Notes: generated by a model from the sequence alone, not told the origin. 64,000 nt of DNA from an uncultured Brevinematales bacterium (GCA_964428015.1 CAYRWR010000019.1:503-64502); one strand, 5' to 3'; positions 6,547 through 25,204 are shown, counted from the first letter of the stretch. Program-made: numbers and translations.

Positions 6547-6570
6547 TCAGTAGAAATAGTCAATTATCCA

Positions 6571-7041: not shown

Positions 7042-7216
7042 TTTTCCTCCCTTCTTTATGGTAGCATAGACCTTAAAAAATGCCAATTGTTTAGAATACA
7101 TTTAAGGCGGCTTGCATGAAATAGTGCAAGAATCAGCGGATTTATGAAAGGGCTTCCGGTGAAAAAAAGAATTATTTCATACTCAGTTATGCACATAAGT
7201 CACATAGGTCAATGAA

Positions 7217-7232
7217 TGGCACATTAATTGCA
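7217..7232 (+). promoter_or_regulatory. sigma-54 promoter P1 (TGGCACattaaTTGCA)
   Basis: Exact match to the RpoN -24/-12 consensus TGGCAC-N5-TTGCW, 209 nt upstream of ATG 7441. Confidence 0.75.
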
Positions 7233-7440
7233 TATTCTTGTGCAAGCGATTCCAGTCTCTTTCCAGGATGGAAGACGCGAAGATAAAAAATTATTTTTGA
7301 ATGAAGAATGGGTTATGGTGATGTACTTCTTTGGGGCCGTTCGGGCTCTCCCATTCCTTTCATTCATCCACTTTGCATCATTGGCTGATCTTACAATTTT
7401 TCAATCGAGGGTCGATTAAAAAATAGGAAAGGAGAGTGTT

Positions 7441-7938
7441 ATGAAAAAAGGAAGAGTGTTTTCTGTTCTGGTGGTTTTGATGGTTATCTGTGTCAGCAGC
7501 CTGTCTGCTCTGACCATCTTTGATGATGACTTTGATCAGTCATCCAGTACTGTCCCGGGTTGGAAGAGAAGTTCCACCACCTATATCACCCGTTATACCG
7601 GTACCTACAAAATCGGTACAGCAGCTATGCAAATCCGCAAAAACTACAATGCCGTCACCTATCTCAATGTAGCGCCTTTTAAGAGCATGACCCTGCAGTT
7701 CAAGATGGCCGCCTATTCCCTGGAAGCTGGTGAATACATCCGCTGTCAGTACAATATCAATGGTACCTGGGTCACCGCGGCTACTCTGGCAGATGGTGCC
7801 GACAATGGTACCTATAAAAGCTATTCCGTGACCATACCGACGGGAAATGTACTGCAGATCAAGTTTTACATGGTCGGCTCTGCTACTGACGACTATGGCT
7901 ATGTGGATAATGTGATCCTGACCGGCGTCCGCAAATAG
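7441..7938 (+). CDS. small secreted beta-sandwich/CBM-like protein, amylase-associated family, copy 1
   Basis: Signal peptide followed by a mature domain of about 140 aa, IFDDDFDQS...GWK...DDYGYVDNVILTG. It is paralogous to 11069-11560 and 19402-19899 and ends 11 nt before the GH13 gene. Confidence 0.8.
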   Translation: MKKGRVFSVLVVLMVICVSSLSALTIFDDDFDQSSSTVPGWKRSSTTYITRYTGTYKIGTAAMQIRKNYNAVTYLNVAPFKSMTLQFKMAAYSLEAGEYIRCQYNINGTWVTAATLADGADNGTYKSYSVTIPTGNVLQIKFYMVGSATDDYGYVDNVILTGVRK

Positions 7939-7949
7939 AGGGGGCCGGT

Positions 7950-10646
7950 ATGAAAAGAATAAGAGGTTTGTTGTATAGCCTGTTACTGCTTCTGGCTGCA
8001 GGTCAGCTGTTTGCGGTACGGACCGTGGTATTCATGTACAAGGTTACTGTAACAGGGCAGGATATCTTTATCAAAGGCGGACACGACGCCGGGCTGGTAC
8101 CGGGAGTCTATCCATCCATGAGTGAACCCATAACCTATAAAAACACCAAGAATACTACTACCGCTGCTATCAAAGCCAATGATGCCTCTCTGGACTGGGG
8201 TAGTGAGTCTGCCCTGGACTGGACTACTTCCAGCTGGAATCCCACCTGGGGCACCAAGCGCACCTACGCGGTAGACGGCTATGGTGAAGACCCTGAAAAT
8301 ACTTTGGGTGACCATTGGTGGAAGTTTGATGTGGATATGCTGGGCAATACCGGCGACTGGTTTGAATTCAAAGCCTTTATGCGACAGGGGACCAGCGAAT
8401 CCTGGGAAAATAATATCGCGCAGGCGGGTACCCCCTACAGCACTATCAACCACTGGGGCAAAAAGGGATATATCACTAAAGTCCGCTTTGGCGAAGCCTG
8501 GGTAGAGTATCAGACCCTGGGTACAGTGGCTAACCGGGCACCGGTGGCTAATTTTACGGCCAGCCCCTCCACAGCCAATCTCAACCAGGCTATTACTTTT
8601 GATGCCTCGTCATCCAGCGACCCGGATGGTGATGCCCTGCAGTACCAGTGGGATTGGGATAATAACGGCACCTATGATACCAGTTATTCTTCTACCAAGA
8701 CTGCATCTCACAGCTGGACCACAACCGGTACCAAGACCATTAAACTGCAAGTCAAGGATCCTGCAGGACTTACTTCCACTAAGACCCTCAGTGTGAATAT
8801 TATAAGTACCACAGCGTCCTATGACTTTCGTGAAGAAACTATCTACTTTGTGATGACTACCCGTTTTTACGACGGGGACCCCAACAATAATGTACACTGC
8901 TGGGATGATGCCCAGGCAGGCAACCCGGACAGTGACCCGGCCTGGAGAGGAGATTTTGAAGGCCTCATCCAGAAACTCGACTATATCAAAGCCCTGGGAT
9001 TCTCAGCTATCTGGATCACACCGGTAGTACAGAATGCCAGCGGGTATGACTACCATGGCTACCATGCCATAAACTTTAAAAAAGTTGATCCGCGGTATAA
9101 GACCACATCTGATGCCAGTGCCGAAGTTTCTTTCCAGAGACTGATCAATGCCGCACATGCCAAGGGTATCAAAATCATCCAGGATATTGTACTGAACCAT
9201 TCCGGGAACTTCGGGGAAGAAAACCTCTATCCCCTGTTTAAAAAAGATCCCACCAAGCCCGATACCGCGGCTAACATGATCCGCATCGATGGCGGTAAAC
9301 TCCCTGCCAATTACAGTACCCTGACACCCGGCCAGCAGTACAGTGCCCGTATCGATGCCATGAAGACAGATTCTATTGATACCGGGTTTATTTACCACCA
9401 TGAGAAGAGCCTGAGCTGGGAAAGCTATACCGTGGAGACGGGCCAGATCGCAGGTGACTGTGTGGACCTCAATACCGAGAATCCTACCGTGAAGACTTAT
9501 CTGGTGGATGCGTACAACAAGTATATCGATATGGGAGTGGATTCCTTCCGTATTGATACAGTCAAGCATATCAGCCGACTGACTTTTAACAAATACTATA
9601 TCCCCGCGTATATCAGCCGGGGAGGCAGTGATTTCTATATCTTTGGTGAAATAGCCAGCCGCTACCGCCAGGTGTGGAATAACGGGATACCGGCGATTTC
9701 CTGCCCCTTCTATACCTGGAAGGAAGAAAAATCCTACACCTGGGGGACCAGGGTGCAGAATGAAGCTGCTACCGCCCAGCACTGGAATGACAATCTGACA
9801 GTCAATAATGAACAATCCACCGATAATCATTATCTGTACGGCAATGATTATCATGTCCCCAACTGGAGTCAGCGCAGCGGTCTGGATGTCATAGACTTTC
9901 CCATGCACTGGAATTTCAACAATGCCTGGGATGCCTTCGGGATAGCAAAAAATGATGACCATTTTTATGCCGATGCTACCTTTAATGTGACTTATGTAGA
10001 CAGCCATGACTATGCTCCGGACGGCGCTCCGGAAAATCAGCGATTTGCCGGCAGCCAGTCCACCTGGGCTGAAAATCTGAGCCTCATGTTCACATTCAGA
10101 GGTATTCCTTGTCTCTACTATGGATCAGAGATTGAATTCCAGAAAGGTAAACCTATTGATGTGGGTCCCAATGCGCCTCTCTCTACTACCGGACGCGCCT
10201 ATTTTGGCGATAAGATCACCGGTACTGTGGTGGCCAGCGGCTTTGGTACCTACAGCTCCGCCAGCGGGAATGTCAAAACAACTCTGGACTATCCCCTGGC
10301 TCAGCATATCCGCAGGCTGAATATGTTCCGCAGAGCTATTCCTGCCCTGCAGAAAGGACAATATTCCGTGTCTGATATTTCCGGTTCCGGAATGGCCTAC
10401 AAACGCCGCTACACTATGGGCAGCGTGGATAGCTTTGCTCTCATAACGGTATCCGGTAGCGCTACCTTCTATAATATACCGAACGGAACCTACAAAGACG
10501 CGGTCACCGGTCAGGTTATTACCGTGAGTAATGGCAGTCTTACCGCTAATTGTTCCGGTAAGGGTAACGTTCGTATCTTTGTATTGGATCTGCCGGGAAA
10601 TCCAGCCCCGGGTAAGATTGGAAATACTACCTCTTATCTGTACTGA
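7950..10646 (+). CDS. secreted multidomain GH13 alpha-amylase (module X, PKD, GH13 catalytic domain)
   Basis: GH13 regions DIVLNHSG, GVDSFRIDTVKHI, FGEIAS and YVDSHDY. PKD-like segment FDASSSSDPDGDALQYQWDWDNNG. Signal peptide ends AAGQLFA. Confidence 0.92.
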   Translation: MKRIRGLLYSLLLLLAAGQLFAVRTVVFMYKVTVTGQDIFIKGGHDAGLVPGVYPSMSEPITYKNTKNTTTAAIKANDASLDWGSESALDWTTSSWNPTWGTKRTYAVDGYGEDPENTLGDHWWKFDVDMLGNTGDWFEFKAFMRQGTSESWENNIAQAGTPYSTINHWGKKGYITKVRFGEAWVEYQTLGTVANRAPVANFTASPSTANLNQAITFDASSSSDPDGDALQYQWDWDNNGTYDTSYSSTKTASHSWTTTGTKTIKLQVKDPAGLTSTKTLSVNIISTTASYDFREETIYFVMTTRFYDGDPNNNVHCWDDAQAGNPDSDPAWRGDFEGLIQKLDYIKALGFSAIWITPVVQNASGYDYHGYHAINFKKVDPRYKTTSDASAEVSFQRLINAAHAKGIKIIQDIVLNHSGNFGEENLYPLFKKDPTKPDTAANMIRIDGGKLPANYSTLTPGQQYSARIDAMKTDSIDTGFIYHHEKSLSWESYTVETGQIAGDCVDLNTENPTVKTYLVDAYNKYIDMGVDSFRIDTVKHISRLTFNKYYIPAYISRGGSDFYIFGEIASRYRQVWNNGIPAISCPFYTWKEEKSYTWGTRVQNEAATAQHWNDNLTVNNEQSTDNHYLYGNDYHVPNWSQRSGLDVIDFPMHWNFNNAWDAFGIAKNDDHFYADATFNVTYVDSHDYAPDGAPENQRFAGSQSTWAENLSLMFTFRGIPCLYYGSEIEFQKGKPIDVGPNAPLSTTGRAYFGDKITGTVVASGFGTYSSASGNVKTTLDYPLAQHIRRLNMFRRAIPALQKGQYSVSDISGSGMAYKRRYTMGSVDSFALITVSGSATFYNIPNGTYKDAVTGQVITVSNGSLTANCSGKGNVRIFVLDLPGNPAPGKIGNTTSYLY
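8016..8519 (+). other. module X (about 168 aa, unassigned conserved module), N-terminal copy in amylase 1
   Basis: VRTVVFMYKVTVTGQDIFIKGGHDAGLVP...HWWKFDVDMLGNTGDWFEFKAF...INHWGKKGYITKV. Boundaries approximate. Confidence 0.7.
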
Positions 10647-10669
10647 TTAAAACTGAACACCCACTATGC

Positions 10670-10706
10670 GGGGGTCCGGAGCTTAGGCTTCGGGCCCCTT
10701 TTTTTA
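10670..10706 (+). terminator. rho-independent terminator after amylase 1
   Basis: The hairpin GGGGTCCG-loop-CGGGCCCC is followed by T7. Confidence 0.75.
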
Positions 10707-10867
10707 TAATCTCCGCGGCTCAAAAAATAGCAGAAATGCACATATGCACAAGGCATGCGCGATGCATTTTGTATATGCACAGAATTGCAAGGAAAACCAG
10801 CACAACCACAGGATATAAAAATTATAATTGTATTTCTGATATAGATATAAAAAATACCCTGTGTGAT

Positions 10868-10883
10868 TGGCACGTTAATTGCA
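10868..10883 (+). promoter_or_regulatory. sigma-54 promoter P2 (TGGCACgttaaTTGCA)
   Basis: Exact RpoN -24/-12 consensus, 186 nt upstream of ATG 11069. Confidence 0.8.
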
Positions 10884-10890
10884 ATTATAC

Positions 10891-10904
10891 TGTAAGTGCT
10901 TACA
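10891..10904. promoter_or_regulatory. 14-bp palindrome TGTAAGTGCTTACA (LacI/cre-like operator candidate)
   Basis: It starts exactly 7 nt after the -12 TTGCA and spans the expected transcription start. Confidence 0.55.
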
Positions 10905-11068
10905 TCTTCCTTACAGAAGATTGTAATCTAATAAAAAAAGAAAAAAGAATGAAAAAGGAAACGGTTCCCGCAACCATCTCAATTCCTCCAGGGATGCCAG
11001 TACCTTTTTCATTCTTTAAATATAAAAAAAATCTGAAAAATATAAAAAATCAGAAAAAGGAGAGTGTT

Positions 11069-11560
11069 ATGAAAAAGGTAGGTTTAGTGTTGTTTTTAAT
11101 GGTTTTCGCAGGTCTTGGTTCTTTGTATTCCCTAAATATTTTTGATGATGATTTTGACCAGTCTGCCACCACCATGGCCGGATGGAAGCTTAGTTCCACC
11201 ACCTATATCACCAAATATACCGGAACTTACAAACAGGGTCTGGCTGCCATGCAGGTCAGAAAGAACTATAATGCAGTCACTTATATCAATGTATCACCCT
11301 TTAAGAACATGGTCTTAAAATTTAAAATGGCCGCTTATTCTCTGGAAGCCGGTGAATACATCCGCTGTCAGTACAATATTGCCGGAACCTGGGTGACCGC
11401 GGCTACTCTGGCTGACGGTGCAGACAATGGAACATTCAAGAGTTACTCTGTGAGTATTCCTACCGGGACCACACTGCAGATTCGTTTTATCATGAATGGA
11501 ACCGCAACTGATGATTATGGATATGTCGATGATGTAATTTTGACCGGTGACCGCAAATAA
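11069..11560 (+). CDS. small secreted beta-sandwich/CBM-like protein, amylase-associated family, copy 2
   Basis: The RBS context AGGAGAGTGTTATGAAAAA is identical to that of copy 1. Signal peptide LVLFLMVFAGLGSLYS. The mature part is about 90 percent identical to copy 3 by eye. Confidence 0.8.
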   Translation: MKKVGLVLFLMVFAGLGSLYSLNIFDDDFDQSATTMAGWKLSSTTYITKYTGTYKQGLAAMQVRKNYNAVTYINVSPFKNMVLKFKMAAYSLEAGEYIRCQYNIAGTWVTAATLADGADNGTFKSYSVSIPTGTTLQIRFIMNGTATDDYGYVDDVILTGDRK

Positions 11561-11579
11561 AAAAAGTAAGGAGTCTAAC

Positions 11580-14500
11580 ATGAAAAAATTCAGAAGTTGG
11601 ATATTAGCAGCTCTGCTCCTGCTCTCAGCAGGACAGATTTTTGCTGTCCGTACTGTCGTGTTTATGTACAAACAGACAGTCACCGGACAGGATATCTTTA
11701 TCAAAGGCGGACATGACGCGGGTCTGGTACCCAGTGTCTACCCCAGCATGAGTGAACCTATTACTTATTATAATACCCTCAATACTACCACCGCGGCTAT
11801 AAAAGCCAATGACGCATCTCTGGATTGGGGTAGTGAATCTGCCCTGGACTGGACCACATCCCTATGGCCCGCTTCCTGGGGTGCCAAGAAGACCTATGCC
11901 GTAGACGGTTATGGTGAAGACCCCGAAAACACCATGGGCGACCATTGGTGGAAATTTGACGTAGATATGCTGGGAAACACCGGTGACTGGTTTGAATTTA
12001 AAGCATTTATGAGACAGGGTACTGCTGAATCCTGGGAAAACAATATTGCCCAGGCCGGCACTCCCTATACAACCATCAACCACTGGGGTAAAAAAGGCTA
12101 TATCACCAAAGTAACCTTTGGTGCTAATACCGTCACCTATGTGGCCCTGACTCCTCCCGTCAATCAGCCCCCAGTAGCAGCTCTTACCGCTACCCCTGCT
12201 ACAGCTGATACCGGCGTGGCTATTTCCTTTAGTGCTGCCGGCTCTACCGATCCTGAAGGTACCGCTCTGCAGTACCAGTTTGACTGGGAAAATGACGGCA
12301 CCTATGATACAGCCTATAGTACAACAGCTACCGCCAGCCATGCTTATACCACCTCCGGTACCAAGACCGTCAAAGTCCAGGTCAAAGACGGCGGCGGCCT
12401 CACTGCTACCAAAACCGTAACTGTAACCATCACCGTGCCTACTGTAAAGACCCTGATCGTACACTACCGTAACTCATCAGCCTGGGCTACACCTAAGATG
12501 CACTGGGGATACAGCTACTATACAGCCGTATCTGACCTTTCCTCATCCGGTACTGACACTTTTGGTGCCAAGTTCCAACTGGAATGGACAGCTGCGGATA
12601 CCTATCTGACCACCTGTTTCAACAATGGTTCTACAGCCTGGGATGGTTCTGACCGCCGTATCAATAAACCGGCAACCTTCCCTTCTGAAGTATGGGTGTT
12701 GAACAATGATTCTACCGTTTACCTTAGCAATCCTATAGATGCTACTCCTCCTACTGTAGCCCTGTCCGCACCTGCCAACGGTGCCAGCCTGACCGGTACA
12801 GTAACCATCAGCGCTACCGCCAGTGACAACGTAGCCGTGACAAAAGTAGAGTTTTACTACGGCACTACCAAAATAGGTGAAGATGTTTCCTCTCCTTATT
12901 CCCTGTCCTGGAATACCGCTCTGGTTCCCAATGGCTCTTATGCCATTACAGCCAAAGCCTTTGACGCGGCTGGCAATAACACCACTTCTGCTTCACGTAC
13001 AGTGACCACCGCTAATGCTAATGTGCCTCCTGTCGCCAATGCTGGTTCTGATATTACCGTACAGGTAGGCGGAACAGCTCAGTTCAATGCTACTCAGTCT
13101 TACGATCCTAATGGCAGTATTGTCTCCTATCAGTGGTCCAATGGTCTGTCCGGTGCTACTCCCAGTAAAGTGTACAGCACCCTGGGTACTTATACAGTAA
13201 CCCTGACTGTGACAGACAATAACGGCGCTACCGCTACTGATACTGTAGTAGTCAATGTGGTCAACCAGATTGTCCGCACAGACCCTCGTGAAGATACCAT
13301 TTATTTTGTCATGACAACTCGTTTCTACGACGGTGACCCTGCCAATAACATTCACTGCTGGGATGACGCGCAAGCCGGTAATCCTGACAGCGACCCTGCC
13401 TGGAGAGGAGATTTTGAAGGCCTCATCCAGAAACTCGACTATATCAAAGCCCTGGGATTCTCAGCTATCTGGATCACACCTGTAGTGCAGAACGCCAGTG
13501 GATATGATTACCATGGTTATCATGCCTTGAACTTCTCCAAAGTGGACCCCCGCTACAAGACCACCGGGGATGCCAGTGCTGAAGTATCCTACCAGAGACT
13601 GATAAATGCCGCACATGCCAAGGGTATGAAGATTATCCAGGATATCGTGCTCAATCACTCCGGTAATTTCGGAGAAGAAAATCTCTATCCCTTGTTTAAG
13701 AAAGATCCGGCTATTTCTGACACCACAGCTGCTTCTCTGGTCCGCATCGACGGTGGAAAACTGCCTGCCAACTACGCTACCTTGACACCGGGCGAACAAT
13801 ACGGCGCGCGTATTTCCGCTATGAAAGAAGATACTATTGATACCACTTTCAAATATCACCATGAAAAAAGTATGTCCTGGGAAAGCTATTCTGTACAGAC
13901 CGGACAGATCGCGGGAGACTGTGTTGACCTCAATACAGAAAACCCTGCTGTCAAGAACTATCTGGTCAGCGCCTATAAGAAATACATCGATATGGGTGTA
14001 GATGGCTTCCGTCTGGATACAGTGAAGCATATTTCCCGTCTGGCCATGAATAAATGGTATGTACCTGAACTGCTGAACTATGCCGGCAATAACTTCTATT
14101 ACTTTGGAGAAGTGTGCAGCCGCTACCGCCAGATCTGGAATAACGGAATACCTGCAATTTCTGCACCCTTCTATACCTGGAAAGAAAATGTGTCCTATCC
14201 CTGGAGTGAATCAGACCGTACAGTCAATGAAGCATCTGTTTTCCAGAACTGGAATGACAACGACACTATGGATAATCTGCGCGAAACCGGCAATCACTGG
14301 CTGAATGGGAATGCCTACCATACTCCTGACTGGTCCTATCGCAGTGGTTTGGACGTCATCGACTTCCCCATGCACTGGAATTTCAACAATGCCTGGGATG
14401 CCTGGGGTGTAGCTTTAAGCGGCGACAAGTACTATAGCGATGCTACCTTTAATGTGACCTATGTAGACAGCCATGACTATGCTCCGGACGGAGCTCCTGA

Positions 14501-15110: not shown

Positions 15111-15127
15111 GTATTGCCATATGTATA

Positions 15128-15159
15128 AATGGGCTGCCGCAAAGGCAGCCCATTTTTTT
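15128..15159 (+). terminator. rho-independent terminator after amylase 2
   Basis: The hairpin AAATGGGCTGCC-loop-GGCAGCCCATTT is followed by a T-run. Confidence 0.85.
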
Positions 15160-15187
15160 ATTAAAGGGTATCTGTGACACATGGCAG

Positions 15188-15216
15188 TTGAAATTGTTTT
15201 TTAAAAGTAGTATAAT
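15188..15216 (+). promoter_or_regulatory. candidate sigma-70 promoter TTGAAA-17-TATAAT
   Basis: TTGAAA at 15188-15193 and TATAAT at 15211-15216 lie 27 nt upstream of ATG 15243. Confidence 0.55.
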
Positions 15217-15242
15217 ATTATTAATCTTTTAGGGGGTTCGGT

Positions 15243-16178: not shown

Positions 16179-16194
16179 ACCAGTTCAAAAATTA

Positions 16195-16226
16195 AAATCC
16201 CCGGGTAATAAGACCCGGGGATTTTT
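16195..16226. terminator. bidirectional terminator between convergent genes
   Basis: The hairpin AAATCCCCGGG-loop-CCCGGGGATTT has A- and T-runs on the two sides. Confidence 0.85.
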
Positions 16227-16241
16227 CGGTACTTTCTTTTG

Positions 16242-17879
16242 TCAAAACATAAAGCTACGCAGAAGGTCTTCCATGGCTCCACTCACAGCCAGGTCAACTG
16301 CTTTTTGCCCCCTGTCATCAACACTAAAAATTTTATCCCGGAGTACTTTGATGTTTTTTCTGGCTTCAGCCACATTATCGGTCAGAGCGTACCAGTGGAG
16401 CAGGGTACCTCCATGATAGGCCAGATATAACTGCATCGCTGTCATTCCCTGAGGGCCGGGTAAATCAACCAGGTTTCGTTTTTTACCATAACGAAGGATT
16501 TCTTTATAGTTAGCTGTGATAGCCCCCCACAGCAAGTCGTATTTAGGATATTTCTTGATGAAGAGCTTGAAACTGGTTTCATGTGTATCACTGCGCAGCA
16601 TGATGTCTCTCACAATATTGGTGACTCCCCGGTCCAGGGCCAGGATTAGCGGAGTGTTTCCATCAGAGTCTGTGGTTTCCAGGTCAGCTCCTTTTTCCAG
16701 CAGCAAATTGACCCATTGGGCTCGGCTGTCTTTGACCGCAGTTAGAAGAAGGGAGTTCATCTCCGGTTTCGCAGTCTGTGCCAGATTGACTGTTTTGAGG
16801 TAACCGGGTTGATCCTGCTGATACAGGAGGGTGAGGAGTTCTGTCCACTCTCCGGGCCGAACCTTTGCCCCCAGAGATTGCAATACCTGAATCATATCTG
16901 AATCGTTGTTTTTAAAGGCAGTAAAGAGCAAGCTGTTTTCATTATCCAGGACAGCATTGACATCTCCGCCTTTAAAAAACAGGCTGGTAACCCAGGGTAT
17001 CCTTTCATCTTTCACAGCCCATAACAGCACCTGGTCTTTGAGGCGATTTTTCTGCTGGCTATTTAAGACAGTTTGTGCTGTTTCCAGGTCATCTTTCTGA
17101 TAGAGATCTTTGATGTAGGCCAGGTTCTGTTCATAGCTCATGCCAACCCCGTATTGTATCAGAAATTTTGCTATATCATTATGGCCCTTTTGTCTGGCCA
17201 GTTCTGCCAGATTGATCGATGTTATGGTTTCGCCTGGTTTAGTTTCCGGGACCACCTGCTGGGAAATATCAGCACCTTTGGCAAATAATAATTCCACCCA
17301 ACGGATACGGCCATCCCGTACCGCCCAGAGCAGTGCCTGATCGATTACCCGGGGGTATACTGCTTTTTCCAGTAACATACCTGCTAAAGCTAAATTATTC
17401 TTATTATAAGCGATCTTAATCAGGTCAAGACAGTCATTTTCTTCCAGGCGGATATCCTGAGTGATGAAGAGCTTCACCGCATCCAGTTGATTGTTGGAGT
17501 AGGCACATTGCAGTATCTGAGGATCAAGTTCCAGTCCGTTTTTGAACAACAAAGGGATACATTGACGTGTGTCATCCTTATCTCTGGCCAGAAGATAAAC
17601 CAAAGGTGATGAATTATTATATTTTATATTAAGATCAGCGCCCTTTTGGAGAAGGTAAGTCATGAGGTCTGGGTTAAATTTGATATAATTTGCCAGATAA
17701 AAACCCATAACAGGTTCTTTTTTTAAATCTACTGAACCAGCCTCTACCTGTCTTTTTACTTCACTGAAATCACTGTTTGATAATGCAGTCCAGAAACTGA
17801 CCGGCCAGATTGATGATGTCAATGTGAAGAAAAATAGAAAGGCCAGGAATCTTTTCACAGTATCCTTCCCCGGAAACAT
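16242..17879 (-). CDS. secreted ankyrin-repeat protein
   Basis: N-terminal signal FLAFLFFFTLTSSIW. Multiple ANK-like units, including KGADLETTDSDGNTPLILALDRG, KGADISQQ, GADLNIKYNNSSPL and GGDVNAVLDNENSLLF. Confidence 0.85.
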   Translation of the reverse strand: MFPGKDTVKRFLAFLFFFTLTSSIWPVSFWTALSNSDFSEVKRQVEAGSVDLKKEPVMGFYLANYIKFNPDLMTYLLQKGADLNIKYNNSSPLVYLLARDKDDTRQCIPLLFKNGLELDPQILQCAYSNNQLDAVKLFITQDIRLEENDCLDLIKIAYNKNNLALAGMLLEKAVYPRVIDQALLWAVRDGRIRWVELLFAKGADISQQVVPETKPGETITSINLAELARQKGHNDIAKFLIQYGVGMSYEQNLAYIKDLYQKDDLETAQTVLNSQQKNRLKDQVLLWAVKDERIPWVTSLFFKGGDVNAVLDNENSLLFTAFKNNDSDMIQVLQSLGAKVRPGEWTELLTLLYQQDQPGYLKTVNLAQTAKPEMNSLLLTAVKDSRAQWVNLLLEKGADLETTDSDGNTPLILALDRGVTNIVRDIMLRSDTHETSFKLFIKKYPKYDLLWGAITANYKEILRYGKKRNLVDLPGPQGMTAMQLYLAYHGGTLLHWYALTDNVAEARKNIKVLRDKIFSVDDRGQKAVDLAVSGAMEDLLRSFMF

Positions 17880-17966
17880 TTAAAATTCAAACAAAAATAT
17901 GTTTCCTATATAAACAGGATAAAAGGAAAATAGAAAAAATCCAGCGAAATATTAAATATATCTGAA

Positions 17967-18920
17967 TTATTGATAAATAATCAGGCCAGGTTGAGGTTTA
18001 AGTGCCAGAACATCAGCCGGAGACATGAGGGGAGAGTCATAATGCAGTCCTTTGGCCTGAACTCCGGGATAGTACCACAGTTTGAAGCCTTTATAGGGCA
18101 TATTGGTGGCCAGGGAGTTAAATGCGTGTGTGCCTAATTTCTGCCAGGGTGGGCCCCAGCCGGAAGTGTTGTGTACCAAAAGTACCGGATAATAGTCTGC
18201 CTGTATTTTTTCACGATGCAGGATCATTTGATATTTAAACTGGTGGAATACCAGTTGATGAATTCCACGGATGTGATTGGACAAAATATACGACTGCATG
18301 ATGCTCTGAATCTGGTTTATTTCTTCGCCTGTGATATGCCCGATTTCTTTCATGGGGCGGTCTGTACGCCATTCAGGGTCTACAGCCAGTTGGACATTAG
18401 GGTATTTCAGAAAAGGCAGCATTTTCCGGATTGCGTTTTCCGGGCCGTATTTTCCGATCTGGTGATCGAGGTAGAGCAGCATCTTATTGGAATAGGTATA
18501 ATTGATAAAGGACATCACAATATTAGAGTTCAGATAAGCCAGTTCTCCACCCGGTTGACAGGTAGCATAGATGAGATAGAATGCAGGCACCACTCCCTTA
18601 TCGCCATTTGTAGCATCATAGTTGCTGGCTTCAGTGAGCAGCATCTTACGTAGTTCATCTTTGGAGTAACGCCCCAGTATGCCCATATACCGGGAGTTAG
18701 GGTGGCCATAGTAAGCTATAATATGATTGCTGACAAACATATTGGTATTGTAGAAGAATTCATCCAGAGGATTCATAACAGGCGGGATATCGGATGACAC
18801 TCCTGTTAACAGCTTCCAACCTGCCTGTGACAGTTGGGACAGGCGGGGCAGAGAAAAAAAGACCGCAGTTAAGAACAGAGCAACAATCAGTAGTTTTATA
18901 CGAAGGTCATTTATTTTCAC
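17967..18920 (-). CDS. membrane-anchored hypothetical protein
   Basis: GTG start with an AAGGA RBS. One N-terminal TM helix (LLIVALFLTAVFF) and an extracytoplasmic domain of about 280 aa. No confident family. Confidence 0.55.
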   Translation of the reverse strand: MKINDLRIKLLIVALFLTAVFFSLPRLSQLSQAGWKLLTGVSSDIPPVMNPLDEFFYNTNMFVSNHIIAYYGHPNSRYMGILGRYSKDELRKMLLTEASNYDATNGDKGVVPAFYLIYATCQPGGELAYLNSNIVMSFINYTYSNKMLLYLDHQIGKYGPENAIRKMLPFLKYPNVQLAVDPEWRTDRPMKEIGHITGEEINQIQSIMQSYILSNHIRGIHQLVFHQFKYQMILHREKIQADYYPVLLVHNTSGWGPPWQKLGTHAFNSLATNMPYKGFKLWYYPGVQAKGLHYDSPLMSPADVLALKPQPGLIIYQ

Positions 18921-19209
18921 AGATTTATCCTTAATAAGAACTTAAAAAAGCACAGTATTTTAACATGAGCATCAGGAATAAGCAATTCCGGGGAATAGGG
19001 TGGTCGTCTTACCCTTTGATCAGTTTTTAATTATTTACCGACTTTGCTATCCCGGCTATTGTGGAAAATATTTTATGTAAGCGTTACTTTTTACAACTAA
19101 CAATGTGCATTTTATTTGGGCGTGAATTTGCACTGCAAATATGCCCAGTGCAGATTGTCTACAGTGTAATTTATTGTCTGACATAGAGCTGCACATTTAT
19201 CACTAAACT

Positions 19210-19225
19210 TGGCACGGGAATTGCA
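19210..19225 (+). promoter_or_regulatory. sigma-54 promoter P3 (TGGCACgggaaTTGCA)
   Basis: Exact RpoN -24/-12 consensus, 177 nt upstream of ATG 19402. Confidence 0.8.
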
Positions 19226-19232
19226 ATATAAA

Positions 19233-19246
19233 TGTAAGTGCTTACA
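19233..19246. promoter_or_regulatory. 14-bp palindrome TGTAAGTGCTTACA (operator candidate)
   Basis: Identical to the P2 copy and again exactly 7 nt after TTGCA. Confidence 0.55.
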
Positions 19247-19401
19247 GCTGGATTGCATAGCAAGTGCAATTTAGAAAAGCGGCGAGTGAAAAAAGAGGTT
19301 GGTTGTGTATCCGGTTGCCTTGCCCAGGCAAATCTTCATCTATCCAAAAACCTTTTTTTTCCGGTATCGTAATATTCAAAAAATTTACCGGGAGGTATGT
19401 C

Positions 19402-19899
19402 ATGTCCAAGTACAGAACTTTAGTGTTAAGTTTCTTGGTTGTTTTGTTAGCTACTGTCAGTTCTTTCGCTTTAACCATCTTTGATGACGATTTTGACCAG
19501 TCCGCTACTACTATGGCGGGATGGAAACTCAGTTCCACCACTTATATCACCAAATATACCGGAACCTACAAACAGGGTCTGGCAGCTATGCAGGTAAGAA
19601 AGAATTATAATGCTGTTACTTATTTAAACGTAGCTCCCTTTAAGAACATGGTGCTGAAGTTTAATATGGCTGCATATTCTCTGGAAGCCGGTGAATACAT
19701 CCGCTGCCAGTATAATATTGCTGGTACCTGGGTGACCGCAGCTACCCTGGCCGACGGCGCAGACACTGGTGCTTTTAAAAGTTATTCTGTTTCTATTCCT
19801 ACAGGAAATATCCTGCAGATACGTTTTATCATGAACGGTTCTGCTACAGATGATTATGGCTATGTAGACAGCGTGATCCTCACCGGTGACCGCAAATAA
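19402..19899 (+). CDS. small secreted beta-sandwich/CBM-like protein, amylase-associated family, copy 3
   Basis: A GGAGG RBS at 19391-19395 precedes the start. Signal peptide LVLSFLVVLLATVSSFA. Mature domain is paralogous to copies 1 and 2. Confidence 0.8.
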   Translation: MSKYRTLVLSFLVVLLATVSSFALTIFDDDFDQSATTMAGWKLSSTTYITKYTGTYKQGLAAMQVRKNYNAVTYLNVAPFKNMVLKFNMAAYSLEAGEYIRCQYNIAGTWVTAATLADGADTGAFKSYSVSIPTGNILQIRFIMNGSATDDYGYVDSVILTGDRK

Positions 19900-19925
19900 T
19901 ATAAAATCAATATAAGGAGAATAGG

Positions 19926-22748
19926 ATGAGAAAATTATTGTTAGCTCTGCTTCTTATGGCTTCAGCCTCCTCGGCTTTTGCTGTCAGGACAGTGGTGTTC
20001 ATGTACAAACAGACTGTGACCGGTCAGGACATCTTTATTAAGGGTGGACATGACGCGGGTCTGGTTCCCAGTGTCTATCCCAGTATGAGTGAACCTATCA
20101 CTTATTTTAATACCCTCAATACTACTACCGCGGCTATCAAAGCCAATGACGCATCTCTGGATTGGGGTAGTGAATCCGCCCTGGACTGGACCACCTCCCT
20201 GTGGCCCGCTGCCTGGGGTCCCAAGAAAACTTACGCCGTAGATGGATACGGTGAAGATCCCGAAAACACCATGGGCGACCACTGGTGGAAATTTGACGTG
20301 GATATGATCGGTAACTCCGGGGACTGGTTCGAATTTAAAGCCTTTATGAGACAAGGTACTGCTGAATCCTGGGAAAACAATATCGCCCAGGCCGGTACTC
20401 CTTATGCCACCATCAACCACTGGGGTAAAAAAGGCTATATCACCAAAGTGACATTTGGTGCCAATACGGTGACTTTTGTTCCTCTGAACACACCGGTCAA
20501 TCAGCCTCCCGTGGCTGCTCTGACTGCTTCTCCTGCCTCTGGTACCGTAGCTACTTCTTTTACCTTTAATGCTTCAGGTTCAACCGATCCTGAAGGTACC
20601 GCTCTGCAGTACCAGTTTGACTGGGAAAATGACGGTACCTATGATACAGCATATAGCACCACTGCTACTGCTACACACGTATTTACCACCATAGGCACCA
20701 AGACTGTAAAAGTTCAGGTCAAAGACGGCGGCGGACTTACCGCTACCAAGACTGTCAGCGTCACCATCAATAACACCGCTCCGACTGCTTCCTTTACTGT
20801 TACTCCCGCCAGCGGCACATTAGCTACTACTTTTACCGTTGACGCTTCCGGCTCTACCGACCTGGAAGACGGCACAGCTCTGCAGTACAGATGGGATTTT
20901 GAAAACGACGGCACCTTTGACACTGCTTATTCCACTACCAAGACTGCTACCAAGAAATATACCACTCTGGGTACCAAGACTATCAAACTGGAAGTCAAAG
21001 ATTCATCCGGTCTGTTGTCTACCATTACCAAGACTGTATCTGTAGCAGACGGCGGATTGAACCCTCACCCGGGATACTATTCCGGCAAGCCCGGTGCCCA
21101 CCTCTACTCCAACGGTACTGAATTCTCCATCTGGGCCCGTACCGCTACCTCTGTAAAAGTCCGCACCACCACCGGCGGTGTGACTACAGATACCACTCTG
21201 ACCAAGATCTCCGGCGGCGTCAATGACTGCATCTGGTGGGGCGTGGTTCCTACTGCGATTAAGGGTACTGAATACAAATTCGTGATCGACGGTGTTACCC
21301 TTACTGCTGACCCCTACAGCCAGTACAACCGTTATTCCGGCGGCAACTCTGTAGTAGTTGATCATTCAACCTTTAACTGGACTGATAGTTCCTGGGGTCG
21401 TCCCGGTTGGTCATACTATGCTATTTATGAACTGCATATCAAGGACCTGACCTCAGCTGATACCACCGTGACTGTAGCTAACCGTGGAAAATACCGCGGT
21501 GTGATCGAAAAAATGCCTTACCTCAAGAGCCTGGGTATCACCGCTATCGAACTGATGCCTGTGTCTGAATTCCCCGATGCCGGCTATGGCTGGGGTTATA
21601 ATACCTCTCTGTATTTCGCTCCTGAAAGCGGCTACGCCAATAATCCTTACAATGCTCAGGACGGTGTAGATCAGCTTAAAGAACTGATCAATGCTGCTCA
21701 TGCCAACGGTATCGCCGTAGTTCTGGACATGGTATTCAACCATACTGCTAACAATGACAACTGGCTGTGGGTGATCGACAGTCTGGCATACTTCAGCGGA
21801 TCCACTCCCTGGGGTAACCGCCTCAATACTGCTCATCCTATAGTACAAAGATTAGGTAAAGATAATCTGGAAATGTGGATGAAAGACTACCATGTAGACG
21901 GATTCCGTTTTGACGCTACCGGTAACGGCTGGATCGATTACAACTTTATCTATGCTGTAAAGAACCATTGTTCTGCCATTGACCCCAACGTCTATTTTGT
22001 TTACGAAAACCTGCCCAACAGTACCGGTCTGCGCACCTGGGGTGGACAGTGGGCTGACGGTTACCATGACTATGGTATCAACCTGATCTGTAACTGGAAC
22101 GGTGCTAACATGAGCGGAATGGCCAAGTACATCTATTACTCCAAAGATGACGGCTGGCCTGCCAGCCCCGTGGAAGCTCTGAACTATGTAGAGTCCCATG
22201 ACGAAGACACTCTGGGCAGACTGCTGGGTCTGGCTGGTTATAACGATGAAGGCAAGAGATGGAGAGGCCGTGCTGCAGCTGTGATGCTGGCTACTTCTCT
22301 GGGTGTGCCTATGTTGTGGATGGGTCAGGAATTCCTCCGTCCCCGCGAAGGTCAGGATATCTCTGAGATACCTCTGAACTGGACTTACCTCACTACCTTC
22401 TCCACAGTGAAGGATTACTATGCCGGAGTATTCACACTCAGAAAGAACAATCCTGCTCTGCGCCCTGCTAATGAAAGCGGATTCGCATGGCAGTATACTC
22501 CCTGGACTGGTGACGCCAATGTAATGGGTTATTCCATGACCACCACCAATCCTGCGGACAAGAAATTCGTGATCCTGCTGAATTTCAACTCTTCCGCCCG
22601 CACCGTCAGTCTGGGATTCCCAGCTAACGGTACCTGGACCAAAGTGGTCACAGAGACCGCAGTGAACGGCACATCTACTATTAGTGTGGCTAATAACCGC
22701 GCTACTGTCACCATCGAAGGTTCTTCTGGAATCATCTTCCAGCAGTAA
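19926..22748 (+). CDS. secreted GH13 debranching/pullulanase-type enzyme (module X, 2 PKD, CBM48-like, GH13)
   Basis: E-set/CBM48-like segment GAHLYSNGTEFSIWARTATSVKV. GH13 regions DMVFNHTA, VDGFRFDATG, VYENL and YVESHDE. Exact specificity cannot be assigned. Confidence 0.88.
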   Translation: MRKLLLALLLMASASSAFAVRTVVFMYKQTVTGQDIFIKGGHDAGLVPSVYPSMSEPITYFNTLNTTTAAIKANDASLDWGSESALDWTTSLWPAAWGPKKTYAVDGYGEDPENTMGDHWWKFDVDMIGNSGDWFEFKAFMRQGTAESWENNIAQAGTPYATINHWGKKGYITKVTFGANTVTFVPLNTPVNQPPVAALTASPASGTVATSFTFNASGSTDPEGTALQYQFDWENDGTYDTAYSTTATATHVFTTIGTKTVKVQVKDGGGLTATKTVSVTINNTAPTASFTVTPASGTLATTFTVDASGSTDLEDGTALQYRWDFENDGTFDTAYSTTKTATKKYTTLGTKTIKLEVKDSSGLLSTITKTVSVADGGLNPHPGYYSGKPGAHLYSNGTEFSIWARTATSVKVRTTTGGVTTDTTLTKISGGVNDCIWWGVVPTAIKGTEYKFVIDGVTLTADPYSQYNRYSGGNSVVVDHSTFNWTDSSWGRPGWSYYAIYELHIKDLTSADTTVTVANRGKYRGVIEKMPYLKSLGITAIELMPVSEFPDAGYGWGYNTSLYFAPESGYANNPYNAQDGVDQLKELINAAHANGIAVVLDMVFNHTANNDNWLWVIDSLAYFSGSTPWGNRLNTAHPIVQRLGKDNLEMWMKDYHVDGFRFDATGNGWIDYNFIYAVKNHCSAIDPNVYFVYENLPNSTGLRTWGGQWADGYHDYGINLICNWNGANMSGMAKYIYYSKDDGWPASPVEALNYVESHDEDTLGRLLGLAGYNDEGKRWRGRAAAVMLATSLGVPMLWMGQEFLRPREGQDISEIPLNWTYLTTFSTVKDYYAGVFTLRKNNPALRPANESGFAWQYTPWTGDANVMGYSMTTTNPADKKFVILLNFNSSARTVSLGFPANGTWTKVVTETAVNGTSTISVANNRATVTIEGSSGIIFQQ
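19983..20486 (+). other. module X, N-terminal copy in the GH13 debranching-type enzyme
   Basis: Same conserved sequence as the other copies. Boundaries approximate. Confidence 0.7.
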
Positions 22749-22766
22749 ACTGTTAAGCACTCATCA

Positions 22767-22798
22767 GGGGCTGTCGAAAGGCAGCCCCTTTTTTTTTT
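22767..22798 (+). terminator. rho-independent terminator
   Basis: The hairpin GGGGCTG-loop-CAGCCCC is followed by T10. Confidence 0.85.
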
Positions 22799-23098
22799 GT
22801 CCGGTATATTCCCGGTCATTGTACAGGGGAGGGGAGAGCGTGGATCACAGCTGTGCTTTCAGGCTGCTGGGTAGGGGTTGTGAACCTGCTGAGGAGATAT
22901 TTTTCTCCTTCGTTTTTTAGGAAATTGCCCTGTATTCTCTGATCTGCTTTCTTTAGACTGGTAAAGCTCCGCTAGAGCCGCACTGCTTTCCCGCATTTGA
23001 GGCGTCATGCATCCGTTTATGCACAAAATTCTACTGCCCCCTCTTTTTAGAATTTATAATTCATTGCTATTAAAAGAGTTATAATATAGCTTATCAAC

Positions 23099-23114
23099 TG
23101 GCATGCTAATTGCA
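23099..23114 (+). promoter_or_regulatory. sigma-54 promoter P4 (TGGCATgctaaTTGCA)
   Basis: One mismatch to TGGCAC-N5-TTGCA, with GG and GC retained. It lies 53 nt upstream of ATG 23167. Confidence 0.7.
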
Positions 23115-23121
23115 ATTATAC

Positions 23122-23135
23122 TGTAAGTGCTTTCA
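23122..23135. promoter_or_regulatory. 14-bp near-palindrome TGTAAGTGCTTTCA (operator candidate)
   Basis: It lies 7 nt after TTGCA. One arm mismatch relative to the P2 and P3 copies. Confidence 0.5.
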
Positions 23136-23166
23136 ATAAAGAAAACATTTTAGAAAGGAGAGGGTT

Positions 23167-24957
23167 ATGATGAAAAATGTGGTAAGAGGCTTGTCCGTGT
23201 TTTTATGGCTGGTCCTGTCTGTCGCTGTCTATGCCGGGGAGCTGGATGGCAGTAGTCAGGCCGTGATGTTACAGGGTTTCCATTGGACCTCCTGGCAGTC
23301 CGGCACCTGGTGGAATACCATTGCCAACAATGCCCAGGATATCAAGGATACCGGTTTTACTATGGTGTGGTTCCCACCTGCCAGTGATGCCGGCAGTGAC
23401 CAGGGTTATCTGCCCCGTAAGCTGGAAGTACTCACTTCCAAATACGGTAATCAGTCTCAGTTGCAGACAGCGATTTCCCAATTGAACAGTAAGGGTGTGA
23501 TGTCCATAGCGGATATCGTAATAAACCACCGTGTGGGTACAGCCAACTGGGCTGATTTTACCCAGCCTACCTGGGGCTCGGACTCAGTATGTAGCGGAGA
23601 CGAATGGCCGGGTGCCACCGGTGCTCCCGATACCGGAGATCCTTACGCCGCTGCTCGTGACATTGACCACACCAAAGCTTATGTCCAGACCTCTATCATC
23701 GGATGGATGAACTGGCTCAAGAACACCATCGGATTCAAAGGCTGGAGATATGACTATGTCAAAGGTTATTCCGGTTATTACAATGGAATATATAACAATG
23801 CTACCGCTCCTCTTATGAGTGTGGGTGAATACTGGCCCGATATTACCGGTGATTATTATGCCTCCGGCGCCAGTGTGAATTATCACAAGCAGAAACTGGT
23901 AGATTGGATCAATGCTACCGGCGGCAAATCCGCGGTATTTGACTTTACCACCAAGTGGCAGCTGCAGCTGGCAGTAGAACGCAGTGAATACTGGCGACTG
24001 TCTGATGCCGGAAAACCTATCGGCGGTATCGGCTGGTGGCCGGCCAAGATGGTGACCTTTGTGGATAATCATGACACCGGTCCTTCTCCCAGTATCAGTC
24101 AGAATCACTGGCCTTTCCCGTCCAGCGGAGTAATGCAGGGTTATGCCTACATCCTGACACACCCGGGTATCCCCAGTGTCTACTGGGTGCATGTTTATGA
24201 CTGGGGTATGAAAGCAGAAATCAAGACATTGCTGGCCATTCGTAAGGCTCAGGGTATTACTTCTACTTCTACTGTAGTTATTAATGCTGCAGACAGCAGT
24301 AAGTATGCTGCTACTATCGATGGAAAAGTCGCTGTAAAGATAGGCCCGGGATCCTGGAGCCCCGGCACAGGCTGGACACAGGCTGCTTCCGGTGTTAATT
24401 ACGCGGTATGGACCAAGAGTACTACTCCTCCACCGCCTCCTTCCGGTACAGTACGGACCGTAGTATTTATGTATAAAGAAACCGTAACCGGGCAGGATAT
24501 TTTTATCAAAGGCGGACATGATGCCGGTCTGGTGCCTTCCGTTTACCCCACAATGAATGAACCTATTACTTATCTTAATACCAAAAATACTACCACCGCG
24601 GCTATAAAAGCCAATGATGTCAGTCTGGATTGGGGTAGTGAATCCGCTCTGGACTGGACTTGTAATATCTGGCCATCCTCCTGGGGGACCAAACGGACCT
24701 ATGCGGTAGATGGATATGGAGAAGACCCTGAAAATAAGTGGGGTACCCACTGGTGGAAGTTTGATGTCAATATGACCGGAGTCAAGGGTGACTGGTTTGA
24801 ATTCAAAGCCTTCCTGAGACAGGGGACTTCTGAAAACTGGGAGTCCAATATCGCCCAGGCTGGAACACCTCAGGCAACTATCAATCACTGGGGCAAGAAG
24901 GGTTATATTACCCGGGTAATTTTTGCCAATAACTGGGTGGAATTTACCAGTCTCTGA
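23167..24957 (+). CDS. secreted plant/archaeal-type GH13 alpha-amylase with C-terminal module X
   Basis: VMLQGFHW, DIVINHR, GWRYDYVKGY, VGEYW and FVDNHDTG. A Pro-rich linker TTPPPPPSG precedes module X. ATG 23170 is an alternative start. Confidence 0.92.
   Translation: MMKNVVRGLSVFLWLVLSVAVYAGELDGSSQAVMLQGFHWTSWQSGTWWNTIANNAQDIKDTGFTMVWFPPASDAGSDQGYLPRKLEVLTSKYGNQSQLQTAISQLNSKGVMSIADIVINHRVGTANWADFTQPTWGSDSVCSGDEWPGATGAPDTGDPYAAARDIDHTKAYVQTSIIGWMNWLKNTIGFKGWRYDYVKGYSGYYNGIYNNATAPLMSVGEYWPDITGDYYASGASVNYHKQKLVDWINATGGKSAVFDFTTKWQLQLAVERSEYWRLSDAGKPIGGIGWWPAKMVTFVDNHDTGPSPSISQNHWPFPSSGVMQGYAYILTHPGIPSVYWVHVYDWGMKAEIKTLLAIRKAQGITSTSTVVINAADSSKYAATIDGKVAVKIGPGSWSPGTGWTQAASGVNYAVWTKSTTPPPPPSGTVRTVVFMYKETVTGQDIFIKGGHDAGLVPSVYPTMNEPITYLNTKNTTTAAIKANDVSLDWGSESALDWTCNIWPSSWGTKRTYAVDGYGEDPENKWGTHWWKFDVNMTGVKGDWFEFKAFLRQGTSENWESNIAQAGTPQATINHWGKKGYITRVIFANNWVEFTSL
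24451..24954 (+). other. module X, C-terminal copy
   Basis: VRTVVFMYKETVTGQDIFIKGGHDAGLVP...HWWKFDVNM...DWFEFKAF...INHWGKKGYITRV. Confidence 0.7.
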
Positions 24958-24981
24958 TAGTCTATTATACTTAGATTCAAA

Positions 24982-25014
24982 AGAGGGTTACCTTAGGGTA
25001 ACCCTCTTTCTTTT
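24982..25014 (+). terminator. rho-independent terminator
   Basis: The hairpin AGAGGGTTAC-loop-GTAACCCTCT is followed by a T-rich tract. Confidence 0.75.
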
Positions 25015-25126
25015 GTAGGATTATAAATGCACCATGCACTTTGTACCTGCACAAAAACGCACATAGCTATAACCTCTTAAATTTTAACTTTATAAATAGT
25101 AAAGAGTTAACATTTTAGATTTTTTT

Positions 25127-25142
25127 TGGCACAGTATTTGCA
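25127..25142 (+). promoter_or_regulatory. sigma-54 promoter P5 (TGGCACagtatTTGCA)
   Basis: Exact RpoN consensus, 63 nt upstream of ATG 25205. Confidence 0.8.
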
Positions 25143-25149
25143 ATAAACA

Positions 25150-25163
25150 TGTAAGAGCTTACA
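25150..25163. promoter_or_regulatory. 14-bp palindrome TGTAAGAGCTTACA (operator candidate)
   Basis: It lies 7 nt after TTGCA. The arms are identical to the P2 and P3 copies; only the central dinucleotide differs. Confidence 0.55.
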
Positions 25164-25204
25164 GTGAATTTACTGTAAAATCTATAAAAAAAGGAGAGGA
25201 CGAG

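Follow-up and report, generated by a model that had tools for sequence, protein, structure and literature searches.

Probable sigma-54-type promoters combined with a LacI-type operator upstream of the amylase units of an uncultured Brevinematales bacterium

Results and discussion

The five GH13 transcription units of a starch island in an uncultured Brevinematales bacterium each carry, upstream of the first gene, a sigma-54-type (-24/-12) core, a cre-like palindrome over the predicted transcription start and a block of TGCAC elements further upstream. All lie in a stretch of 64,000 nucleotides (GCA_964428015.1 CAYRWR010000019.1:503-64502), referred to below as the window; loci outside it are given L numbers. 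In our assessment the five sites are probably genuine sigma-54-type promoters, each of them a three-part switch that is the only recognisable promoter of its unit and would operate as an AND gate.

Sigma-54-type cores upstream of the GH13 units

A pattern search of the 64-kb window for TGGCAY-N5-TTGCA returned five exact matches, all on the + strand, and none elsewhere on either strand. They are located at 7217-7232 (TGGCACattaaTTGCA, unit 1), 10868-10883 (TGGCACgttaaTTGCA, unit 2), 19210-19225 (TGGCACgggaaTTGCA, unit 3), 23099-23114 (TGGCATgctaaTTGCA, unit 4) and 25127-25142 (TGGCACagtatTTGCA, unit 5), with predicted transcription starts near 7243, 10894, 19236, 23125 and 25153, respectively. 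All five show the geometry of a sigma-54 promoter (TGGCAC-N5-TTGCW, with GG at -24 and GC at -12, 10 bp apart). The initial annotation had reported the same five RpoN-type matches and no other complete copy, and the search of both strands agrees with it on both points; its chance expectation of 0.03 was too low, since dinucleotide shuffles of the window gave a mean of 0.11 matches, with none of 100 shuffles reaching five. Allowing one mismatch added only three sites, 2911 (-), 34468 (+) and 55037 (-), which all lie inside long open reading frames (ORFs), 2911 in the enolase gene, and were discarded as chance matches. No operator or other conserved feature was seen in the sequence following the site at 34468.

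Pfam identified five GH13 genes in the window and no others. In units 1 to 3 a small ORF precedes the gene for a large GH13 enzyme with several domains; units 4 and 5 each comprise one alpha-amylase gene, and these two are paralogous. Every core is found upstream of one of these units and co-oriented with it, between the upstream terminator and the first gene. The target space amounts to about 1.2% of the two-strand positions, and the probability that five of five random sites would fall at most 300 nt upstream of a unit on the right strand is about 2e-10. The proposal that the GH13 units are the targets holds in so far as each contains a GH13 gene, but units 1 to 3 open with the small ORF instead. 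Likewise, the upstream placement of the motifs stands, but not the full set of distances given earlier (53-209 nt): the likely small-ORF starts obtained from paralogue alignment, near 11069 in unit 2 and at 19402 in unit 3, give leaders of about 185 and 176 nt. The mechanically assigned starts of these two ORFs (10736 and 19264) fall in leader or promoter sequence.

In an alignment of 14 promoters, TGGCA and TTGCA do not change at all and the operator half-sites hardly do, in contrast to the variable N5 and the variable linker to the operator. An invariant GG-N10-GC with a variable N5 is the signature of sigma-54, and the information profile as a whole fits a sigma-54 core combined with a dimeric operator.

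The units are separated by strong intrinsic terminators on the + strand. One at 6511-6537 (12-bp stem with 7 GC pairs and a T-run) closes the gene upstream of unit 1, and another at 10670-10699 (13-bp stem with 9 GC pairs and a T-run) ends unit 1; those at 15127-15155, 22766-22789 and 24980-25009 end units 2, 3 and 4. A consensus scan for sigma-70 promoters gave no more sites than shuffled sequence, and none on the + strand that could serve any GH13 unit. The sigma-70-like site at 24943 precedes the terminator of unit 4, and the one at 7035 matches only weakly (9/12) and lies 180 nt 5' of the core of unit 1. Within the island, a nearly perfect TTGAAA-17-TATAAT (15188-15216) stands in front of an unrelated gene at 15243, which indicates that the organism uses ordinary promoters elsewhere, though not for the amylases.

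These data also bear on the alternative that TGGCAY-N5-TTGCA is the site of some other DNA-binding protein and that sigma-70-family promoters were missed by the simple scan. It would agree with the lack of any visible trans-acting factor and with the AT-rich TATACT/TATAAA hexamers between TTGCA and the operator in units 2 to 4. These hexamers, however, are conserved neither in unit 5 nor at L001:14037 in a relative, and a -35 partner at 16-18 nt is lacking, the + strand scan finding nothing there. The GG-N10-GC element with its variable N5 is not palindromic, unlike the site of a dimeric factor. In addition, the amylase of a more distant relative that does use sigma-70 (L020) shows a textbook promoter of this type, TTGACT-17-TATAAT at 7968-7996. 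We therefore regard the alternative as very unlikely.

A putative LacI-type operator over the predicted start

Alignment of the five upstream regions, and then of the 14 promoters, revealed a 14-bp cre-like palindrome, TGTAAGnGCTTACA, that starts 7 nt after TTGCA (8 nt in unit 1). Taking the C of TTGCA as -12, it spans about -3 to +11 with its centre at about +4/+5. All 14 aligned promoters carry it. At up to two mismatches, the only matches in the window are those of units 2 to 5, for 1.36 expected: 10891-10904 (TGTAAGTGCTTACA, at about -3 to +11) in unit 2, 19233-19246 (again TGTAAGTGCTTACA) in unit 3, 23122-23135 (TGTAAGTGCTTTCA) in unit 4 and 25150-25163 (TGTAAGAGCTTACA) in unit 5. The unit 1 counterpart, TGCAAGCGATTCCA at 7241-7254, agrees with TGWAANCGNTNWCA at 12 of 14 positions. 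The latter is the published cre consensus (PMC10864463), to which the palindrome conforms, as expected of a LacI/GalR-type operator. The initial annotation had proposed sigma-54 control in place of LacI-type control. This opposition does not hold, as a LacI/CcpA-type operator is found in every promoter and a LacI-family gene adjoins one of these promoters in relatives; the two kinds of control should therefore be taken together.

Since the palindrome would be transcribed from about +1, it could instead act in the RNA, as a hairpin at the 5' end that influences stability or translation; its first half-site could pair with an additional TTACA located about 8 nt further 3'. However, a hairpin of 6 bp with only 2 nt in its loop is sterically unfavourable, and with the predicted start inside the left arm the full stem would not be present in the RNA. 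The sequence is moreover that of a known protein operator, and relatives encode a matching regulator alongside, so that we consider a role in RNA very unlikely.

Most promoters have an additional TTACA/TGTAA-type half-site about 7-9 nt 3' of the operator (10910-10916, 19251-19257 and 25170-25180). At the homologous locus L010 there is a complete second operator, TGTAAGTGCTTAAA, in tandem with the first. The extra half-site may serve as an auxiliary operator to which the repressor binds cooperatively or as a tetramer.

A candidate enhancer upstream of the cores

All 13 promoters compared for this feature have TGCAC/GTGCA elements between -157 and -88, the block overall lying about 85-160 nt upstream, and TGCACA is present in 11 of 12 upstream regions against a background of 7%. 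The zones of units 1 to 5 hold 1, 3, 3, 1 and 3 copies of TGCAC/GTGCA, respectively, compared to a mean of 0.077 in random 80-nt windows, of which 0.2% hold at least three. The elements are often repeated at 10-bp spacing or arranged as inverted TGCAC-N-GTGCA pairs, and an AT-rich spacer separates the block from the core.

In unit 1 the candidate upstream activating sequence (UAS) zone covers 7100-7200, with TTGCATGAAATAGTGCAA at 7112-7129 and elements at -119 and -53. That of unit 2 (10733-10798, ATGCACATATGCACAAGGCATGCGCGATGCATTTTGTATATGCACAGAATTGCAAGGAAAACC) has TGCAC at -157, -149 and -118 and is kept in the orthologue L008; that of unit 3 (19095-19196) has GTGCA/TGCAC at -131, -107 and -88 and is kept in the orthologue L001:6079. 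In unit 4 (23005-23032, ATGCATCCGTTTATGCACAAAATT) TGCAC is found at -105, and in unit 5 (25027-25066, ATGCACCATGCACTTTGTACCTGCACAAAAACGCACA) at -125, -118 and -105, partly conserved in L001:14037. From this position, which is the classical one, the TGCAC block is a candidate activator-binding enhancer.

A proximal TGCACAT at about -46 to -53 was also seen in unit 1 (7190-7196), unit 3 (19190-19196) and the unit 3 orthologue (L001, around 6059), much nearer to the core than the main block.

Conservation in relatives and promoter turnover

The closest homologues of the amylases, at 71-79% identity, are located on one contig (L001) of a metagenome-assembled genome (MAG) named "uncultured Brevinematales bacterium" (Spirochaetota). 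Its isolate name bears the project code SRP304446, and the window's own proteins occur in runs SRR136170xx. In the syntenic island of L001, five of five GH13 units have the exact core, each with an operator 7 nt downstream. When 185,579 species-representative genomes were scanned for the composite pattern of core and operator, seven sites were obtained in the Brevinematales MAG (five in L001 and one each in L004 and L008), together with one Bacteroidales match. Six of the seven clearly precede GH13 genes; the seventh, in L008, belongs to an apparent unit 2 orthologue whose gene runs off the locus. The Bacteroidales match (L006) falls within GC-rich DNA lacking an AT-rich promoter context and was rejected as a chance occurrence. 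A metagenome scan with the same pattern added L010, an orthologue of unit 1, and the core/operator architecture is also present in L015 and in the more divergent L021. Over about 240 kb of retrieved loci the exact core occurs only at GH13 promoters of this lineage, one chance match apart. In L021 the operator begins 11-12 nt after the core instead of 7, with both elements retained.

The second promoter of L021 reads TGGCCAC-acaaa-TTGCG; this is probably a TGGCAC core distorted by a sequencing error, the other option being a real degenerate copy. Many GH13 calls on the L021 contig are fragmented, suggesting indel sequencing errors (for example at 8573-8620). In L015 the recorded start of the amylase gene (4297-9735, minus strand) at 9735 is only 7 nt after TTGCA; a GTG near 9684, with the ribosome-binding site GGGAGG, is the likely start.

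Could the similarity of the five sites be no more than a functionless remnant of a recent duplication of promoter-plus-gene cassettes? The GH13 genes and the small ORFs are indeed paralogues, with 60-81% identity. The upstream DNA outside the three elements, however, has fallen to background identity (about 55-60%), whereas the elements themselves do not vary, either between paralogues or between genomes with a protein identity of 71-79%. In orthologue pairs the TGCAC block and the core/operator islands are conserved and the spacer between them has diverged, which points to selection and not merely to recent duplication. The shift from 7 to 11-12 nt in L021, with both elements kept, also argues against a remnant, and we regard this explanation as most improbable.

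In the more distant amylase/LacI homologue loci L002, L003 and L016 to L019 the sigma-54 motif was not found, nor was the operator in L016, the sole distant locus scanned for it. The architecture is thus lineage-restricted. Taken together with the sigma-70 promoter of L020, the lack of the sigma-54 motif in L002, L003 and L016 indicates that the promoter type has turned over within the wider group. These homologous amylases would offer a tractable case for the study of such turnover.

Candidate trans-acting factors

L004 encodes a LacI-family protein of 342 aa, its gene pointing away from that of a giant amylase (>1,280 aa) that has the composite promoter, and L015 shows the same divergent pairing of a LacI-family gene with a composite-promoter amylase. 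The sample to which the window belongs contains an orthologue with 90% identity, carried by a short contig; there is none in the window itself. A regulator of the appropriate family is therefore encoded, adjoining its putative target, in L004 and L015 and represented by the orthologue in the sample. The closest solved homologues of this LacI candidate are CcpA proteins ("glucose-resistance amylase regulator", E ~3e-52), followed by PurR. Against the ccpA equivalog TIGR01481 it scores 181 bits, below the cut-off of 442, and it does as well or better on the CytR, RbsR and PurR models. On these scores it is best described as CcpA-like, without being classed as CcpA.

In both loci the LacI side of the LacI-amylase intergenic region contains a conserved pseudo-palindrome, TGTAAATACTTTCA and TGTAACTTCTTTCA (L004, around 3893-3906; L015, around 9925-9940). 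It resembles the operator but lacks its central CG, and may be an autoregulatory site.

The family assignment raises the question of which signal the repressor conveys. One reading combines the sigma-54 promoters with a global CcpA-like repressor that reports the preferred-sugar or energy state, possibly with a phospho-HPr-type corepressor, leaving the activator to sense starch or maltodextrin. The solved CcpA homologues would fit, as would an operator that equals the cre consensus and sits where the cre of amyE sits. The more distant LacI orthologues in L018 and L019 are not beside amylase genes, and the restriction of the operator to amylase promoters is known from the window alone, one part of the genome. 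The failure to reach the ccpA cut-off, with CytR, RbsR and PurR models scoring equally well or better, argues in the other direction. So does the position of the LacI gene, which in two genomes is divergent from an operator-bearing amylase; a divergent gene pair is the usual arrangement for a local repressor. GH13 genes were the only places in the MAG where the composite pattern was detected, although that scan also required the sigma-54 core. A global repressor is a serious alternative, though the less likely one. A local repressor that responds to a starch product is favoured because the LacI gene adjoins its target in two genomes.

Pfam searches took in nearly all window ORFs of at least 100 aa, L011 (about 6 kb beyond the end of the window) and the neighbours in L001, L004, L008 and L015. 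They detected no PTS (phosphotransferase system), PRD or Sigma54_activat domains in or beside the units, which sets these apart from a LevR/CelR-type regulon. The earlier statement that rpoN and an enhancer-binding protein are not encoded in the window holds for all ORFs scanned.

A proposed two-input switch

A sigma-54 closed complex cannot open without an ATP-hydrolysing enhancer-binding protein. In the switch that we favour, such an AAA+ protein would bind the TGCAC block about 100 nt upstream, loop over the AT-rich, freely diverging spacer and use ATP to convert the closed complex into the open one. A LacI/CcpA-family dimer on the operator (-3 to +11) would block DNA melting or promoter escape until released by a sugar effector, for which maltose, maltodextrin or another product of starch breakdown is the most likely candidate. 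This repressor would be encoded elsewhere in the genome; the candidate in the relatives is divergent from a sixth, giant amylase with the same promoter. Production of the secreted amylases, of the pullulanase-like enzyme and of the small CBM-like partner proteins would require both that the activator is on and that the repressor is off. Basal expression from such an AND gate should be very low because sigma-54 promoters are silent without activator. The switch presupposes that sigma-54 and the enhancer-binding protein are encoded in the genome; binding of each protein to its element, the start positions and the nature of both signals are predictions of the same kind.

Several points weigh against this assignment. 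Neither rpoN nor Sigma54_activat was found by Pfam in the window, in L011 or in the fetched loci of relatives, and nothing was found in the literature searched that links Brevinema-lineage organisms with sigma-54. The LacI candidate reaches no NCBIfam equivalog cut-off. The aligned promoters are paralogous or orthologous copies, so that the 14 instances are not independent. The operator of unit 1 is degenerate and shifted by 1 nt, and the enhancer motif was defined heuristically, as TGCAC repeats in varied arrangements. Finally, the motif alone is no proof of regulated transcription, as many sigma-54 binding sites in E. coli are not productive promoters (PMC4591121). The sigma-54 regulon put forward in the initial annotation has thus withstood all cis-level checks made (a GH13-exclusive motif, no sigma-70 promoter, a candidate enhancer at the usual distance and a -24/-12 element strictly conserved in diverged relatives), while on the trans side no rpoN or enhancer-binding protein gene was seen. 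Within the Spirochaetota, the combination of sigma-54 and an enhancer-binding protein is established, for example in the RpoN-Rrp2 system of Borrelia (PMC3037356).

A more far-reaching version, which we put forward tentatively and hold to be rather improbable, is a concerted switch of the lineage's whole extracellular starch set (at least five to seven units) from sigma-70 to sigma-54. It would involve a dedicated enhancer-binding protein that senses glycan or maltodextrin and is not of the PRD/PTS type, and a poised, doubly locked promoter co-occupied by repressor and closed holoenzyme. The repressor would be adjacent to the closed holoenzyme because the operator starts at -3. If true, such promoters would form a class of their own, in which the expression of costly secreted enzymes has practically no leak.

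Comparison with known systems

Control of sugar and polysaccharide catabolism by sigma-54 together with CcpA is already known in Bacillus. The levanase operon of B. subtilis (levDEFG-sacC) has a sigma-L promoter, the activator LevR and a cre at -45, from which CcpA blocks the contact between LevR and the polymerase (PMC3463425). It shares with the Brevinematales units, as interpreted here, a sigma-54 promoter, a secreted polysaccharide hydrolase, an upstream activator site combined with a LacI-family site, and dual (positive and negative) sugar control. The lev cre at -45, however, lies between enhancer and promoter, while the Brevinematales operator is at about -3 to +11. LevR is PRD/PTS-controlled and encoded beside PTS genes, in contrast to the Brevinematales units, which have no PTS or activator gene nearby. 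Furthermore, lev is a single operon for levan in the Bacillota; here, at least five to seven separate units for starch are found in the Spirochaetota.

The cel operon of B. thuringiensis has a sigma-54 core, GGCACGCTAATTGC, with UAS1-3 upstream, the cre TGAAAGCGTTAACA, and control by CelR and CcpA (PMC10864463). Its core is nearly identical to those of the Brevinematales promoters, but its cre is located upstream of the -24/-12 element, and the operon encodes a cellobiose PTS, not secreted enzymes, with a PRD-type activator encoded alongside. In the amyE gene of B. subtilis the cre (amyO, TGTAAGCGTTAACA) lies at +4 (PMC3463425), on an amylase gene and with almost the same sequence and position as TGTAAGnGCTTACA. 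The promoter of amyE is of the sigma-A type, however, and not of the sigma-54 type as in the present units. Classical sigma-54 promoters such as those of the Borrelia burgdorferi RpoN-Rrp2 system resemble the present ones in the spacing of the -24 and -12 elements and in the candidate enhancer, located about 100 nt 5' of the core. They differ in their nitrogen, flagellar or rpoS targets, as opposed to secreted glycoside hydrolases with a repressor operator over the start.

The arrangement had been called unusual in the initial annotation. This is so for amylases and for the Spirochaetota, but not in kind, given the precedent of the lev and cel operons. Three surveys of sigma-54 regulons (PMC12316311, PMC6615313 and PMC3162934) do not mention amylase or starch, and in the literature on sigma-54-dependent amylase or starch genes only indirect phenotypes of rpoN mutants were found. 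A conserved two-key sigma-54 plus LacI-type switch on amylases was not found in the literature searched. If the assignment is correct, the reach of sigma-54 would include secreted amylases and pullulanases as well as the foraging for polysaccharides in the Spirochaetota, neither of which is covered in the three surveys named above. It would also provide a natural, repeated two-input promoter of fixed geometry, in at least 14 instances, with a sigma-54 core and a LacI-type operator over the start. Such promoters could be used to study the action of a classical repressor on the sigma-54 closed complex, or as a tight AND-gate part in synthetic biology.

Gene products of the island

All products discussed here are encoded on the + strand. 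The enzyme of unit 1 (7950-10646, 898 aa) is an alpha-amylase-like GH13 protein with a PKD domain (Pfam Alpha-amylase, 3.9e-40, and PKD; alpha-amylase-like in NCBIfam). That of unit 2 (11547-15110, 1187 aa) is, according to Pfam and NCBIfam, an alpha-amylase-like GH13 protein with PKD/Big domains. Unit 3 encodes a GH13/CBM48 debranching enzyme resembling type I pullulanases (19926-22748, 940 aa; Pfam CBM_48 and Alpha-amylase), whose best NCBIfam match, pulA_typeI, is under the cut-off. The secreted alpha-amylases of unit 4 (23167-24957, 595/596 aa, GH13 and Alpha-amyl_C2) and unit 5 (25205-26980, 591 aa) are paralogues with 81% identity. The called start of the 596-aa unit 4 protein is the second ATG.

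The small ORFs encode CBM-like proteins. The secreted protein of unit 1 (7441-7938, 165 aa) has no Pfam family. In unit 2 the ORF is 10949-11560, the signal peptide aligning from an internal MKK near 11069 (75-76% identity in the paralogue alignment), and in unit 3 it is 19402-19899, where the likely start corresponds to the 165-aa called product P0248 and the ORF list has 19264. The paralogues are about 165 aa long, 60-76% identical and without a Pfam family, and their own family comprises only 15 clusters among 5.8 billion proteins. An AlphaFold2 (AF2) model with a predicted local distance difference test (pLDDT) score of 87 consists of a signal helix and a beta-sandwich, which matched CBM16/4/22/61 in Foldseek (E ~1e-7, TM ~0.6). 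The genes are always beside GH13 genes; in L020 the position is downstream of the amylase, not upstream. These proteins probably accompany the large amylases as free, secreted partners that bind glucan.

Leader hairpin and neighbouring genes

A conserved hairpin is present in the 5' leader of unit 1 at 7298-7366 on the + strand (GAAUGAAGAAUGGG, the UUAUGGUG loop and CCCAUUCCUUUCAUUC). Four leaders have it in common, the others being L001 around 1732-1800, L001 around 9862-9925 and L010 (minus strand) around 1070-1140. It is made up of an outer stem, GAAUGAAgAAUGGG paired with CCCAUUCyuUUCAUUC, an internal loop with the conserved sequence UUAUGGUG, and an inner hairpin that varies. L010 shows a compensating change in which AUGGG:CCCAU becomes UUGGG:CCCAA. 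Rfam recognised no known RNA family anywhere in the window, this hairpin included. The unit 1 leader as a whole folds no better than shuffled sequences (z = -0.42), although the local hairpin is conserved. The hairpin could be a stability, translational-control or protein-binding element.

The starch island is interrupted at 15188-18920 by a gene of the Exo_endo_phos family with a strong sigma-70-like promoter of its own. Further interrupting genes, on the minus strand, encode a 545-aa ankyrin-repeat protein and a 317-aa ORF without an assigned family. Just 3' of the island, at 27085-29243 in the window and 16018-19438 in L001, both genomes have a 287-aa ORF without an assigned family. Beside it lie EAL-HDOD proteins (one in the window, two in L001), possibly related to cyclic di-GMP signalling and with no sigma-54 motif.

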